Shown here: positions 236 through 5,076 of the stretch, one piece after another
Layout of the letters: each line of letters opens with the position of its first letter
Position numbering within the stretch: position 1 is the first letter of the stretch
Source: a virus
Lineage: Duplodnaviria > Heunggongvirae > Uroviricota > Caudoviricetes
Virus record (IMG/VR): IMGVR_UViG_2563366946_000003
Length of the DNA stretch: 5,621 nt
Strand: one strand, 5' to 3'
Notes under the pieces: model-generated
Seen by the model: only the letters and a program-made list of their open reading frames with translations
Database searches by the model: none
Told to the model about the DNA's origin: nothing
Program-made: the position numbers and the translations under genes

Positions 236-1207
236 TTAGTGCTTCCCTTCTATTAAGTCTAACCTAGCTTTTATTCTTTCTATTTCTCTGCGCTGCCATG
301 CTGCCTCGATATAGAATAAGAGATCAGGTCTGACCCCCCATCTAGATCCTGCTGGCGTTATTTCAACGCGCTCAATGATGTCTTCCATTACCATCACTGG
401 ATTATCATCCTCATCAACAATGATGCTCCCGTCATTATCAGTCAGCGGCATTTCCCTTTGGCCAGTAATGACGTCATCATATACTGCGGGATAATCGTCA
501 TAGCAAAGAAAGGCATAGCGGCATGTTGTGCTTTCTTCTTCCATGAGTCCGTGAGAAATAAGAACATCACGAAGTTGCTGCGCGATTACACCATGATGTA
601 TCCTCGCCCCTTCTTCCCCCTTTATAGCGACAGCGTTCAGCCATTTATAAGCGATATACCTGACGTCACCCCAGGCATCCAGCAATGTTTCGTCAGGAGA
701 GACCGGCTCTGTCTTTAATGTTCCGTCACTGGTAGCCACAGGATTGGAGCCAAGATAAACTATCGAGAACCTGTTTCCCGGACCACCAAGAGCATTTACA
801 TTATCAAGATAAGGTTTAACATCTCCGTTCTCAAAAAGATGTTCGAGTGCGTTATATACCGCGCGACGTGGAGTACTGCTTCTGGAACCATGCAACGTTA
901 TCATTGCACCATCTGCTGAAGACGTTGTTTCACCGCCGCTAACGATTAATCTCTGAGCGGTAACATCATCAGACGGTACTTTCTTCGCAATAATGGCGTA
1001 ATTACCCTCAAGTTTGACTTCCGCGCGAACTTGTCCTGATGTACCTGCATGGACAGTCAGTGACTGGACGGCAACATCATCTGTGAAATCAACGGGTACA
1101 GGAACCGTCCTCACGCCTGACGTCGACATAAAAGTAGGAAGCGTTCTGTTAGGAGTGGCTCCGTAGACAAAATCCCTTGAAACAAATTCTTCCTGTTTAA
1201 TTTTCAC
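236..1207 (-). CDS. Phage tail fiber/tailspike-like protein, C-terminal fragment with S74-type intramolecular chaperone (autoproteolytic) domain; 5' end probably truncated by IS629
   Basis: 323-aa ORF with TAA stop at 238-236. The C-terminal half carries the pattern I associate with S74 chaperone domains of tail fibers and endosialidases (ATSDGTLKT ... LDAWGDVRYIAYKW ... ARIHHGVIAQQLRDVL). The annotated start is a GTG only 4 bp from the IS629 left end at 1212, so the true N-terminus is most likely missing. Confidence 0.6.
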   Translation of the reverse strand: MKIKQEEFVSRDFVYGATPNRTLPTFMSTSGVRTVPVPVDFTDDVAVQSLTVHAGTSGQVRAEVKLEGNYAIIAKKVPSDDVTAQRLIVSGGETTSSADGAMITLHGSRSSTPRRAVYNALEHLFENGDVKPYLDNVNALGGPGNRFSIVYLGSNPVATSDGTLKTEPVSPDETLLDAWGDVRYIAYKWLNAVAIKGEEGARIHHGVIAQQLRDVLISHGLMEEESTTCRYAFLCYDDYPAVYDDVITGQREMPLTDNDGSIIVDEDDNPVMVMEDIIERVEITPAGSRWGVRPDLLFYIEAAWQRREIERIKARLDLIEGKH

Positions 1208-2521: not shown

Positions 2522-2776
2522 TCTAAAATTGCTATACTATTCATGTTGGTTTTTCTCCACGGATTTACCGACAACCGAAGCCCTGACTGTTCCAGCAGTT
2601 GGGGCTTCACTGTTTTGATTTCTTTGCCGCATCAAGCATCACTTCTGAAAACGTGCGCTTGCCACTGAATACTCTTTCTCTTCTCAATTTTTCGTTCGTG
2701 CCAAATGATTCGCCATGAACAAAATTTGGTCTTAAAATGGTAATCGCAATCTCTTTGACTACTGCATCCAAGCGAA

Positions 2777-2929
2777 TCACACCGTTACCCCCTCTCTCTT
2801 CAGGCTGTCTATCAGGCGCTTGATAACCTCTGAGTTAAACGACCTGCACTCTTCCTTTGCCCTGCTACCGATAGCATCCTTTAACGACTGCGGCATCCTT
2901 ACCAAAATCTTACTTATTTCTTTCTCCAT
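2777..2929 (-). CDS. Arc-like ribbon-helix-helix (Arc/MetJ superfamily) transcriptional repressor, 50 aa
   Basis: MEKEISKILVRMPQSLKDAIGSRAKEECRSFNSEVIKRLIDSLKREGVTV; the RSFNSEV...SLKREG region resembles P22 Arc (GRSVNSEIYQRVMESFKKEG, from memory). I chose the ATG at 2929 because GGAGGG sits 4 nt upstream; the track's longer ORF (to 2965) starts at a TTG with no RBS. Confidence 0.7.
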   Translation of the reverse strand: MEKEISKILVRMPQSLKDAIGSRAKEECRSFNSEVIKRLIDSLKREGVTV

Positions 2930-2965
2930 GTTACCCTCCACGCAAACAACTCTTTTCGAATACAA

Positions 2966-2994
2966 AAGATAGCAAAGTGAGTATATCTAGTCAA
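2966..2994 (-). promoter_or_regulatory. Putative sigma70-like promoter for the Arc-like gene
   Basis: On the minus strand, TTGACT (plus 2994-2989), a 17-nt spacer, then TATCTT (plus 2971-2966). The -10 overlaps the left operator arm. Pattern match only. Confidence 0.25.
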
Positions 2995-3020
2995 AATTTT
3001 TTTGCATACACTTTGCTATC
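2968..3020. promoter_or_regulatory. Candidate operator: 12-bp perfect inverted repeat GATAGCAAAGTG (2968-2979) / CACTTTGCTATC (3009-3020), 29-bp spacer, between the divergent RHH genes
   Basis: Exact reverse-complement arms read directly from the sequence. They lie between the two RHH start codons and overlap both putative -10 elements. Confidence 0.45.
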
Positions 3021-3022
3021 AA
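3014..3022 (+). promoter_or_regulatory. Putative extended -10 element (TGcTATCAA) for the Mnt-like/peptidase operon
   Basis: TG-n-TATCAA about 22 nt upstream of the ATG at 3044; overlaps the right operator arm. No convincing -35 found. Confidence 0.2.
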
Positions 3023-3043
3023 ATTGAATACCAAAGGTGTTAT

Positions 3044-3292
3044 ATGGCAAAGGGTGTGTCAATTTCTCCAACTACGGTAAGAATCCCTGAATCTTTACGC
3101 GAGGCTCTTGCTGTCAGAGCATCAAAAAATGGTCGCTCTGTTAACTCCGAGATCGTCATGATTTTGCAAGCCGCGATTGATGAAGATAGGTCGCCAAAGT
3201 CAGTTGAGTCATTTGCTCAGCAAGAAGCTGATAAATTCAAAGAGGCGCTACTTGAGACGCTAAAGACCATGTATGCTAAGGATGAAAAATAA
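3044..3292 (+). CDS. Mnt-like ribbon-helix-helix (Arc/MetJ superfamily) repressor, 82 aa
   Basis: MAKGVSISPTTVRIPESLREALAVRASKNGRSVNSEIVMILQAAIDEDR...LKTMYAKDEK resembles P22 Mnt in length, in the NGRS(V/M)NSE motif and in the C-terminal ...LK(D/T)(L/M)Y(K/A)K tail (from memory). AGGTG lies 6 nt upstream of the ATG at 3044; the track's 14-codon N-terminal extension has no RBS. Confidence 0.75.
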   Translation: MAKGVSISPTTVRIPESLREALAVRASKNGRSVNSEIVMILQAAIDEDRSPKSVESFAQQEADKFKEALLETLKTMYAKDEK

Positions 3293-3828
3293 TGCTGCAC
3301 ACAATTCATTTCTTATGCCCTGTTAACACTGCCACTGTTGGGCAACTTCAGAACCACTGTCTCACCGCATTATCTCAAGGCGCAACTGAATTAAATATCC
3401 ATATATCAAGTCAGGGAGGGGAAACTGCTGCTGGCTTTACTGCGTATAACTTTCTTAAGTCACTCCCTGTTACCGTTAGAACTCACAACATAAGCAATGT
3501 TGAATCCATAGCTAATATCGTTTTCCTGGCTGGCTCAGAACGTTTCGCAAACCCATTATCAAGATTCCTGTTACATCCTCTATTATGGTGCTTTGCCTCC
3601 CCAGCCGCCGACCATGCCAGATTGAGAGAGTACGGGAAATGCCTCGATAACGATCTTGATCGCTTCGTTGAGACGTTCAATATCGACATCGGAACCCATA
3701 TTAGGTGGGCATCCCTGATAGCAGACTCGACCATTTTGGATGCTAACAAGGCTCTTGAGCATGGCATAATTAATTCCATAAAAACTGCAAGGCTGGCATC
3801 CAATCAGGCAAACTGGTGGGTTGTTTGA
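3292..3828 (+). CDS. Stand-alone ClpP-fold (S14-like) serine peptidase, 178 aa, translationally coupled to the Mnt-like gene
   Basis: ISSQGGETAAGFTAYNFL aligns with the ClpP [20 protein letters not shown] motif. By manual alignment the ClpP catalytic Ser and His fall on S72 (NVESIAN) and H95 (SRFLLHP), and the C-terminal ALEHGIINSI resembles ClpP AVEYGLVDSI. Its ATG overlaps the Mnt-like TAA (TAATG at 3290-3294). Confidence 0.75.
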   Translation: MLHTIHFLCPVNTATVGQLQNHCLTALSQGATELNIHISSQGGETAAGFTAYNFLKSLPVTVRTHNISNVESIANIVFLAGSERFANPLSRFLLHPLLWCFASPAADHARLREYGKCLDNDLDRFVETFNIDIGTHIRWASLIADSTILDANKALEHGIINSIKTARLASNQANWWVV

Positions 3829-3852: not shown

Positions 3853-3879
3853 TAAAAAACCCACCTGACGGTGGGTTTA
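3853..3879. terminator. Bidirectional rho-independent terminator between the convergent peptidase and YafO-like genes
   Basis: ACCCACC (3859-3865), loop TGAC, GGTGGGT (3870-3876), with A6 upstream and TTT downstream. On the minus strand the hairpin is followed by TTTTTTATA. Confidence 0.6.
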
Positions 3880-4326
3880 GTCAAACATAGTGTTTCTAAA
3901 GTCTCTCGCATACCCTGCTAACACTCTCATTCTATTATGATTGTTAGCAGACATGTGAGCTACAGGATGAAAAAGAGCAATCAATGAATACCTGTTCTCA
4001 TCAAAAAGATTTTGTGCATAAACGAGAGCGGTATTGGATGTTTTATGCCACTGCAACTTTTGCGGTGTGCTGATATCTGTGCCATTTTTTATTGGCTCAA
4101 ATTTATTTTCACCAATTGCTAAATGAAGGTGCATAAGGCCTGCATCTTCAATATCAGGAGGTCGATGATAAGAGGTGTCTCTGCCAAAATAGCTGGGCAA
4201 CGTTCCCGTAGACTTGTAGATGATAAAATCATCTACAAGTGTTTGTTTTAAATCAGGAAACTCAACAAAAACCGGGGAGAAAAAATAGTCAAAACTATCC
4301 TGATTATATTCCACGGTTACTTGCAT
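3877..4326 (-). CDS. YafO-family toxin homologue (type II TA ribosome-dependent mRNA interferase family), 149 aa
   Basis: DDFIIYKSTGTLPSYFGRDTSYH ... MHLHLAIGEN ... ALVYAQNLFDENRYSLIALFHP ... NNHNRM aligns well by eye with E. coli YafO as I recall it (ADFISYKRDGVLPDTFGRDALYD ... AHIHLANEN ... HLVYCQGAFDEQAWLLIAILKP ... DNNQMH). GAGGT RBS lies 5 nt upstream of the ATG. Confidence 0.7.
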   Translation of the reverse strand: MQVTVEYNQDSFDYFFSPVFVEFPDLKQTLVDDFIIYKSTGTLPSYFGRDTSYHRPPDIEDAGLMHLHLAIGENKFEPIKNGTDISTPQKLQWHKTSNTALVYAQNLFDENRYSLIALFHPVAHMSANNHNRMRVLAGYARDFRNTMFD

Positions 4327-4334
4327 GTTTTACC

Positions 4335-4901
4335 TCAGTGGAAGTTACCAGAGTGAAACACACGAGTCCCGTGCTCAGCAAGCGCACGCAAACCAGCCAT
4401 ATCTACGGAACTATCAAAAACAACCGGAACACATGAGCGTTGTTTAATAAGACTATTCAGGTTGGTTACGGCAGATCTGGCATCAGCAACAACGATATAG
4501 ATATCTCTTGCGATCTCTTTAAAATCAGCAGAAGCTTCTTTGAATACCGATTTCATTGCCCCTTCAAGTCCTCTCAATTGATGCTCTATCAATCGAGACT
4601 TTTCTGGTTCAATGATAGACAACACATTGTCTACATTCTCATCGGTAGCGTTTGCAAGAACACGATAAGCGTATTTCAGCATTCGAGACAATTCTTTAAT
4701 CGAAGACACCGCCTCATGAAGCTCATCATTAGCCCGTTCACTGCTGAATGAGGATTGATGGTAAGCGTGCTGAACGTTATCAGTAACAACCACCTCACAA
4801 CTGAACGCAGAAGCTTGCTGTAATAGCAAACCTATTGCGACTCCAGCTTTGGCAGCGTTCAAGCTAAACATTTCATCAATCCCATTAGTCTCATTGCTCA
4901 T
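4335..4901 (-). CDS. Hypothetical 188-aa protein encoded immediately upstream of, and co-operonic with, the YafO-like toxin; family not recognised
   Basis: Start placed at ATG 4901 (MSNETNGIDEMF...) because a perfect AAGGAGG lies 5 nt upstream; the track's TTG start at 4931 lies upstream of that RBS. The TGA stop (4337-4335) is 8 nt from the toxin ATG and overlaps its RBS. Not Phd/YefM/YafN-like in size or sequence. Confidence 0.6.
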   Translation of the reverse strand: MSNETNGIDEMFSLNAAKAGVAIGLLLQQASAFSCEVVVTDNVQHAYHQSSFSSERANDELHEAVSSIKELSRMLKYAYRVLANATDENVDNVLSIIEPEKSRLIEHQLRGLEGAMKSVFKEASADFKEIARDIYIVVADARSAVTNLNSLIKQRSCVPVVFDSSVDMAGLRALAEHGTRVFHSGNFH

Positions 4902-5076
4902 ACAAACCTCCTTCTTATCGGAGATTATCAATAGCTATGCATCCATTGAATACACGCTATGCGCAATAAGTTTACGTCACGTGATATCATTATGCAACCA
5001 CCGTTCTATCACCGACTAACTTTACTCCCACTCCTATACATCATCTGGTATCCTGCGCAAAACTAAGGAGGTTGGT

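Follow-up and report, generated by a model that had tools for sequence, protein, structure and literature searches.

Predicted mirror-image operators between the Arc-like and Mnt-like genes of a P22-type immunity-I module in a defective Escherichia coli prophage

Introduction

The operators of ribbon-helix-helix (RHH) repressors consist of short pseudo-palindromic subsites that lie about one helical turn apart, overlap a promoter and are read by the N-terminal beta-strands of oligomerizing dimers. Examples of such multisite operators are the 21-bp operator of Arc, the 17-bp operator of Mnt, the met-boxes of MetJ, the CopG operator and the omega heptads, and in Arc and Mnt the residues of the N-terminal beta-strand set operator specificity. 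In phage P22, Arc and Mnt belong to the immunity-I (immI) region, or ant moron, which controls an antirepressor. Here, we describe a perfect 12-bp inverted repeat in the immI region of a stretch of 5,621 nucleotides, referred to below as the window, that was taken from IMG/VR virus record IMGVR_UViG_2563366946_000003 (Caudoviricetes). The repeat lies between the divergent genes of an Arc-like and a Mnt-like protein, and its arms are probably the cores of two mirror-image operators, named O_L and O_R, of a module that is predicted to be heteroimmune with P22 and for which the Mnt-like protein is the most probable binder. RHH operators in P22-type immI regions are well known as a kind; the window holds an uncharacterized specificity variant, and no description of operators of this immI type was found in the literature searched.

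In P22, the region between arc and mnt carries Omnt and Oarc, two different operators that occur once each and lie within promoters that overlap. With the same scanner that was applied to the window, the P22 promoters were found as TTGACA-17-TATATT (Pant) and TTGAGA-17-TATCAT (Pmnt), overlapping within 34 bp, and their overlap is also stated in the literature (PMC2724298). The ant moron is highly mosaic among P22-like phages (PMC2629481).

Results

Relation of the locus to the P22 immI region

Both genes that flank the repeat encode RHH proteins, as the initial annotation had proposed. The 50-residue Arc-like protein (gene at positions 2777-2929, minus strand; Pfam Arc, 5.1e-12) has Arc entries as its best matches in the Protein Data Bank (PDB) and is 39% identical to P22 Arc over residues 10-47 (BLASTP E value, 9e-10). 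The 82-residue Mnt-like protein (3044-3292, plus strand; Pfam Arc, 9.5e-11), with 1mnt as its top PDB match, is 36% identical to P22 Mnt over residues 11-79 (E value, 7e-14), a match that includes a C-terminal region homologous to the tetramerization region of Mnt. The two genes are transcribed divergently, as a P22-type immI region requires, and gene order and orientation are those of P22. Further shared features are the sar antisense RNA gene (2545-2611, plus strand; Rfam RF00262, 83.9 bits compared with a gathering score of 43, E value 6e-18), which is antisense to the ribosome-binding site of ant and whose terminator hairpin was located by a terminator scan (2577-2608, plus strand), and the 5' end of ant. 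The latter is a remnant of the first ~8 codons (2522-2544, minus strand), which is cut by an insertion sequence (IS) and shares 95-98% identity with the beginning of the P22 and epsilon34 ant genes; ant is intact in phages phiv205-1 and vB_EcoP-611R6. As in P22, the module has its place in the late region of a P22-like genome beside the tailspike gene. The nearest phage, phiv205-1 (Lederbergvirus), is 98.7% identical and shares the layout, and E. coli ATCC 11775 and further strains carry the window sequence at 100% identity. Because the Arc-like and Mnt-like genes, sar, the ant 5' end, the tailspike neighbor and the phiv205-1 layout come together here, the locus is an immI module of the P22 type, carried by a defective E. 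coli prophage of the CUS-3/phiv205-1 kind.

The operators differ from those of P22. Neither Omnt (AGGTCCACGGTGGACCT) nor Oarc (ATGATAGAAGCACTCTACTAT) of P22 is present in the window, and the aligned positions differ; therefore, the module should be heteroimmune with P22. The protein alignments with P22 Arc and P22 Mnt both begin just past the residues of the N-terminal beta-strand, so that the identities given above refer to sequence outside these strands, and the recognition strands of both window proteins are unlike those of P22. Where P22 has Omnt and Oarc within its overlapping promoter pair, the window repeats one type of unit on both sides of a 29-nucleotide (nt) core. This core carries an 11-nt A/T tract that P22 does not have, and the rightward promoter region is displaced by ~27 nt relative to P22. 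Whereas one operator serves two overlapping promoters in P22, the window has a clear leftward promoter and no rightward promoter above the threshold. The generic layout of RHH operators, in which short subsites recur at intervals of about one helical turn and overlap a promoter, is found here as well. The sites have no sequence relationship to RHH operators in general, and the mirror duplication around a shared UP/-35 core is not known outside this group.

The inverted repeat and its units

The left arm (GATAGCAAAGTG, 2968-2979) and the right arm (CACTTTGCTATC, 3009-3020) are exact reverse complements separated by 29 nt, which confirms the repeat as it was first reported; the match stops at both arm ends, with no extension either way. 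When the 114-nt intergenic region (2930-3043) was shuffled 20,000 times with its dinucleotides preserved, only 0.105% of the shuffled sequences contained a perfect inverted repeat of 12 nt or longer, and therefore the repeat is real and unlikely to have arisen by chance. A chance repeat would be favored by the AT richness of the region, in which inverted repeats of 8-9 nt are frequent after shuffling, but with P at ~0.001 for 12 nt and with arms that persist in place in lineages only 60-70% identical, this explanation can practically be neglected. The arms had also been described as symmetric between the two RHH start codons. In fact, they are off-center: 38 nt separate the left arm from the Arc-like ATG (2929-2927, minus strand), and the Mnt-like ATG (3044-3046) follows the right arm after 23 nt. 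The dyad, at 2994, falls on the -35 hexamer of the leftward promoter, at its upstream edge.

Homologous modules were gathered from phage, E. coli, viral-contig, genome and metagenome collections. Type A comprises the window's type and a Serratia relative, which was the one locus found by a single-protein search of genome contigs. Type B, ~72% identical overall, comprises O157:H7 prophages and phage 611R6; types C and D are further specificity types, and types E to H are more distant. Type-A matches of at least 95% identity were present in 104 of 20,395 E. coli records, and type B accounts for most of the ~390 E. coli records in the 60-80% identity band, O157:H7 included. Searching with a pattern of the conserved core gave no new contigs in the viral collection; in the metagenomes it yielded one useful recombinant type and five chance matches in unrelated AT-rich DNA.

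The element common to the arms is a 7-bp pseudo-palindromic unit, CA(C/A)-n-(G/T)TG, with constant internal spacing. The left arm, the core of the proposed O_L, holds unit L1 (CAAAGTG, 2973-2979, center 2976), and the right arm holds unit R1 (CACTTTG, 3009-3015, center 3012). The right arm makes up the inner two-thirds of a proposed O_R of ~18 bp (3009-3026), in which R1 is followed by CTAT and a second unit, R2 (CAAATTG, 3020-3026, center 3023). At its outer end, TCAAATTGA (3019-3027) is a perfect 9-bp palindrome, and in the commonest type-A variant the 18-mer CACTTTGATATCAAATTG, with the halves CACTTTGAT and ATCAAATTG, is palindromic at 16 of 18 positions. The centers of R1 and R2 are 11 bp apart, which is the geometry of dimer-of-dimer RHH repressors such as Arc, and those of L1 and R1 are 36 bp (~3.4 turns) apart. 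A possible fourth unit, R3 (CCAAAGGTG, 3031-3039), aligns with type-B TCACGGTG; it is weak, its spacing is off by one, and as it overlaps the Shine-Dalgarno sequence of the Mnt-like gene, it is indistinguishable from ribosome-binding-site constraint.

Counted with this pattern, the window has three units at spacings of 36 and 11, compared with ~0.15 expected per region from shuffles, and the regions of types A to D have three or four units, compared with 0.15-0.3 expected. There are four at 36, 11 and 12 in type B, where R2 is kept as CAATGTG, three or four in type D, and three at 58 and 22 in type C. The repeat is better seen as two separate predicted operators, each about two-thirds covered by its arm, than as one 53-bp operator. 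Each arm would consist of the inner unit and the 4- to 5-bp central spacer of a two-unit operator, whose outer unit would follow at a distance of one helical turn. The predicted left operator has a degenerate outer unit, as this unit overlaps the -10 element and the start of the leftward promoter.

Further repeats were noticed in the intergenic region. The start codon of the Mnt-like gene lies in a degenerate third copy of the arm (3044-3056; ATGGCAAAGGGTG, 79% to ATAGCAAAGTGAGT), which is kept in the Serratia relative and forms a 15-nt inverted repeat of 80% with the right arm; since this copy is coding, protein constraint is inseparable from any role as a site. A direct repeat, GAATACAAAAG (2958-2968) and GAATACCAAAG (3026-3036), borders both arms on their outer sides, one copy at the predicted leftward start and the other just upstream of the Mnt-like ribosome-binding site, and is kept in the Serratia relative as GAATACAAATG and GAATACCAAAG. 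A 19-bp palindrome, TCTTTTCGAATACAAAAGA (2951-2969), was considered as an equivalent of Omnt and dismissed: its arms are lost in the Serratia relative (L009) and broken in several type-A variants. Also, the TGTGA/TCACA words of types B and C were not accepted as CRP sites; their spacing is 0-3 nt, not 6. In two loci, L007 (E. coli HH97) and L257, the Mnt-like gene is frameshifted and the arms are intact; unit R2 of HH97 has two substitutions (CAAGTGG).

Conservation and covariation of the arms

In types A to D, the 29-nt spacer is near-invariant (26 of 29 positions are identical between types A and B, while the arms differ), and alignment columns 30-45, which form the core, are invariant or nearly so. 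The sequence AGTCAAAATTTTTTTG..TACAC is present throughout these types, and the conservation of the spacer exceeds that of the arms and of the coding DNA. Around this core, the arm offsets are fixed, and the arm sequences are type specific and change in concert. The arms are GATAGCAAAGTG and CACTTTG(C/A)TATC in type A, CATATCAC(C/T)GTG and CACTGTGATATC in type B, and TACTACAC(C/G)GTG and CACTGTGTAGC(A/T) in type D. The CAC/GTG triplet is invariant across types A to D, and types A, B, C, D, F and G share TACAC-T-(G/T)TG at the right-arm position. Fixed positions combined with concerted sequence change across lineages fit repressor sites in a divergent control region and lend support to the RHH operator layout that had been suggested.

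To measure the symmetry, the arms were treated as a helix in an ungapped alignment of 16 distinct sequences from four lineages. Complementarity was found in 85.9% of cells, compared with 73.5 ± 1.8% after shuffling (reached in 0 of 500 shuffles) and 13-59% when the arms were slid against each other, a result that, with so few independent lineages, is supportive and not conclusive. Five of the 12 arm positions change on both sides. These changes look compensatory, and the arms could therefore be thought to pair as an RNA stem in late read-through transcripts of the minus strand, which would run through the ant moron in the direction of the tailspike gene and include both arms. For P22, late read-through of this region is reported (PMC2629481), and a 12-bp stem of -18.6 kcal/mol (z, -2.3) is predicted. 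However, the common polymorphisms give G.A, C.U, U.C and A.G mismatches and never a wobble pair, the central "n" of the unit is unpaired in types B and D (columns 17/53), the extra copies R2 and R3 are without a pairing partner, and the stability is unremarkable for a stem with a 29-nt loop. We therefore regard an RNA stem as highly improbable.

The type-B module offers a close comparison. It has the same core, the same arm offsets and units at spacings of 36, 11 and 12, and its Arc-like protein is 86% identical to that of the window. In contrast, its units are CACnGTG and those of the window are CAAnGTG and CACnTTG, and the N terminus of the Mnt-like protein differs. Between types A and B, the same letter changes at every unit, as CAA/CAC in L1, TTG/GTG in R1, TTG/GTG in R2 and CAA/CAC in the weak R3. 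The type-B module of O157 lies in a lambdoid prophage beside tail genes and is without the ClpP-like gene that follows the Mnt-like gene in the window. The CACnGTG unit may be homologous to the center of P22 Omnt. This is a lead only: in P22, the dimers of Mnt probably occupy GGnCC elements that are spaced by 10 bp, and for that reason the shared heptamer may be a coincidence.

The more distant types have arrangements of their own. In types F and G (L119-L124), direct repeats of GTGTAGCTA lie 11 bp apart. In type D (L045-L049, L101-L108) and in types F and G, the N-terminal strands of the Arc-like and Mnt-like proteins are nearly the same (RDIAPLGIR, RDISPMGIR) and one motif is repeated up to four times in the module; the two proteins may compete for or share sites. 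Type E (L008 and ~30 IMG/VR loci) has a Mnt-like protein that itself bears an Arc-like strand (NPQVNLRLP), and its sites are GGTACGCAT repeats, with two direct copies 21 bp apart and an inverted TAGGTA beyond the -35 element. An inverted pair around the -35 element thus recurs in type E with unrelated sequence.

Promoters at the two arms

The initial annotation placed a plausible -10 element under each arm. For the left arm, this holds: the -10 element there is extended, strong and fixed in position. It belongs to a Pant-like promoter (2966-2994, minus strand) that consists of the -35 element TTGACT (2994..2989), a 17-nt spacer and the extended -10 element TGcTATCTT (2974..2966) and that scored 9/12 with TG in the consensus scan and 14.0 bits with a position weight matrix. 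A promoter of 11-14 bits is present at the same offset in every related type. Positionally, it is the homolog of P22 Pant, with which it shares a repressor site, here a predicted one, between the -35 and -10 elements. Transcription should start near 2959, and the promoter would drive the arc-like gene, orf57 and ant. Four bases of its -10 hexamer, the TGn and five bases of the spacer lie under the left arm. The near-invariant core between the arms contains, immediately upstream of the -35 element, the A/T tract AAAATTTTTTT (2993-3003), which is probably the proximal UP element of the Pant-like promoter. The invariance of the core would then reflect the -35 element and a proximal UP-like A/T tract.

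For the right arm, the claim did not hold to the same extent. The consensus scanner found no rightward promoter above the threshold on the plus strand, the TATCAA at the arm is weak, and the rightward promoter is not placeable by sequence. A candidate -10 zone of the Mnt-like gene (3007-3029, plus strand) contains three hexamers that score at most 4.1 bits each in the window: TACACT (3007-3012), the one in TGcTATCAA (3014-3022) and TTGAAT (3024-3029). They lie 13-30 bp to the right of the -35 element, all three overlap or abut the right arm, and TACACT is the only one that is conserved in position across all types. It is safe to say that the right arm sits in the promoter or leader zone of the Mnt-like gene; the exact -10 element is a candidate only.

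Among 34 distinct type-A viral contigs, the arms match at 12 of 12 positions in 8 and at 11 of 12 in 26, the deviating base being C3016A in 20, G2972T in 4 and T2978C in 2. The arm base that is mostly polymorphic is arm position 5, the "n" of TGnTAT. This would fit the alternative that no operator exists and that the repeat is a by-product of the mirrored extended -10 elements (TGnTATC) of back-to-back promoters. Indeed, TGnTATC is present in both arms, and the left copy is a convincing extended -10 element 17 nt from TTGACT. But the other five arm bases (CACTT/AAGTG) are kept as well, including the CAC/GTG triplet that types A to D have in common, and the unit recurs where no -10 element is expected, namely in R2, in R3 and in a second left copy in type D. 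Moreover, the right TATCAA is a poor -10 element, and types D and G do not have TGnTAT at this place. Mirrored promoters without an operator are thus a very unlikely explanation of the repeat.

Assignment of the repressor

If the arms are operators, they could be bound by the Arc-like protein, with one site at each of the ant and mnt promoters. Within the Pant-like promoter, the left arm has exactly the place of P22 Oarc, flanked by the -35 and -10 elements, and positions 2969-2994 of the window align without gaps with P22 Oarc and the adjoining -35 element (19 of 26 positions, the matches being mainly -10, GTG, TATC and -35). A site at both promoters also parallels the action of P22 Arc, which represses both divergent promoters (PMC2724298). 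We looked for an Arc-type operator, defined as two inverted TAGA boxes ~9-11 bp apart within ~21 bp. The boxes aligned with TAGA/TCTA of P22 are CAAA (2973-2976) and TATA (2982-2985), which are not symmetric to each other. The GATAG in the arm, first thought to resemble the TAGA half-site of the Arc operator, aligns instead with the TATAG flank of Oarc, which is the -10 element of Pant, and its G is polymorphic.

Natural variants and recombinants speak against the Arc-like protein as well. The type-A variant L033 has the Arc-like strand of type B (SRILVRMP) and yet retains type-A arms, which differ from those of type B. The recombinant L266, like L257, its twin with a frameshift, combines a type-C Mnt-like protein and a type-C operator region with an Arc-like protein that shares 86% identity with that of the window. 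Furthermore, L044 and L266 have identical arms despite very different Arc-like N termini. All this makes an Arc-like operator unlikely, though it is the strongest of the alternatives. TATATC (2982-2987), tried as a contact that follows the Arc-like type, was also rejected, since L266 has AATATT there with an A-like Arc-like protein.

Type A alone has KGVSISPTTVR at the N terminus of the Mnt-like protein; the other types compared, B, C and D, have (V/A)RDIxPxxxR there. In these natural comparisons, the arms track this N terminus rather than that of the Arc-like protein; the left site, too, seems to follow the Mnt-like protein, unlike what the position of P22 Oarc would suggest. Since L033, L266 and L044 uncouple the arms from the Arc-like type, the Mnt-like protein is the preferred candidate, and it is likely that it binds the arms.

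Proposed regulation and exchange of specificity

From these comparisons, we infer binding, its stoichiometry, the identity of the binder, the rightward start and the direction of regulation as follows. An RHH repressor, most probably the Mnt-like protein, which is probably a tetramer like Mnt, would occupy the units, most probably as a dimer of dimers. On O_L, it would cover the spacer and the extended -10 element of the Pant-like promoter, and the arc-like gene, orf57 and ant would be silent in the lysogen. On O_R, it would act on the weak promoter core or leader of its own gene, so that the Mnt-like gene, and with it the translationally coupled ClpP-like gene, would be under negative autoregulation. 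The A/T-rich core would move the rightward promoter region off the leftward one, with one site per side, and a mirror-image pair would arise because the displaced rightward promoter needs its own site. As ant is destroyed in the window, the switch would mainly govern the Arc-like gene, the small open reading frame (ORF) downstream of it, and the Mnt-like gene with the coupled ClpP-like gene.

Several points weigh against two operators bound by the Mnt-like protein. The unit pattern was defined after the arms had been seen, which biases the enrichment P values, and as the pattern was derived from the arms, only the extra unit copies count as independent support; of these, R2 and R3 are degenerate in the type-B variant L271. 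There are about four independent lineages, whose kinship inflates the shuffle statistics, and types F and G have no left-arm site. The TGnTATC sequence, that is, 7 of the 12 arm bases, is explicable by mirrored extended -10 elements. A distance of 36 bp (~3.4 turns) between L1 and R1 is hard for one protein to bridge, and independent occupancy is therefore likelier than bridging. With regard to the binder, the left arm matches the Arc operator of P22, not the Mnt operator, by position, the assignment to the Mnt-like protein rests on one clean recombinant, and types H and H' have mixed units in spite of a B-like Mnt strand. Weighed against the fixed offsets, the concerted change, the recurring units and the recombinants, these points leave the mirror-image operators O_L and O_R, with the Mnt-like protein as the most probable binder, as the reading we prefer.

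Why should the specificity change at both arms? We tentatively suggest, as a possibility that falls somewhat short of being likely, that immI is a natural specificity-swap cassette in which the core is invariant and the units and the N-terminal strands of the repressor are exchanged or coevolve. Type A might have arisen from a CACnGTG-type ancestor in which three or more units, located to either side of the core, underwent the same single-base change from C.G to A.T, a change coupled with the exchange of the N-terminal arm and strand of the Mnt-like protein ((V/A)RDIxP(Y/M/L)(S/G)xR to KGVSISPTTVR). If so, types A and B would be a clean natural one-base switch in RHH recognition, and the mirror symmetry would be explained, as each change in immunity would be needed at both promoters. 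The coevolving pairs of unit and strand are the most useful lead from this analysis and would provide matched protein/site pairs for studies of DNA recognition by beta-strands. The predicted operators illustrate how immI may diversify, with a conserved promoter core and with sites and recognition strands that coevolve. Because the module controls an antirepressor, operator specificity would decide between cross-induction and immunity among related prophages.

Neighboring genes

Between the Arc-like gene and ant lies orf57, a 57-codon ORF (2607-2780, minus strand; PHROG 17642, unknown function, 1e-43), the start of which overlaps the stop codon of the Arc-like gene (GTGA) and the 3' end of which overlaps the sar terminator. 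Phage 611R6, of type B, carries a different ORF of 73 codons in its place. On the other side, a gene for a ClpP-like serine protease (3292-3828, plus strand; Pfam CLP_protease, 2e-11; PHROG "head maturation protease") overlaps the stop codon of the Mnt-like gene (TAATG), and because of this overlap it should be coexpressed with the maintenance repressor in lysogens. It lies in the ant moron, distant from the head genes, is absent at type-B loci and had no match in PADLOC. Further along are a gene similar to the YafO toxin (Pfam YafO_toxin, 3e-22) and, preceding it, an ORF of 188/198 codons (PHROG 8416, unknown function), at 3877-4326 and 4335-4931, both on the minus strand. The two may be a toxin-antitoxin or defense pair in the moron; neither had a convincing match to a PADLOC model.

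The IS that cuts ant is an IS3-family element of 1310 bp (1212-2521; orfA, 1266-1592; orfB, 1589-2479), which, from its OrfA sequence, we take to be IS629/IS1203-like. Its terminal repeats are TGAACCGCCCCGGG... and ...CCCGGGGCGGTTCA, and the flanking triplets are unequal (CTG and TCT). It borders on codon ~8 of ant on one side and on the middle of the tailspike gene on the other. Since the triplets differ and both genes are interrupted at the borders, a deletion that removed the larger part of ant together with the 5' portion of the tailspike gene probably followed the insertion and left the prophage defective. What is left of the tailspike gene, an ORF of 323 codons (236-1207, minus strand), corresponds to no more than the C-terminal portion of an endosialidase tailspike (Pfam End_tail_spike, 2e-78) and includes a Peptidase_S74 chaperone domain; its listed GTG start adjoins the IS and is an artefact of the truncation. 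The endosialidase fragment points to a K1-capsule-specific, CUS-3-like phage.

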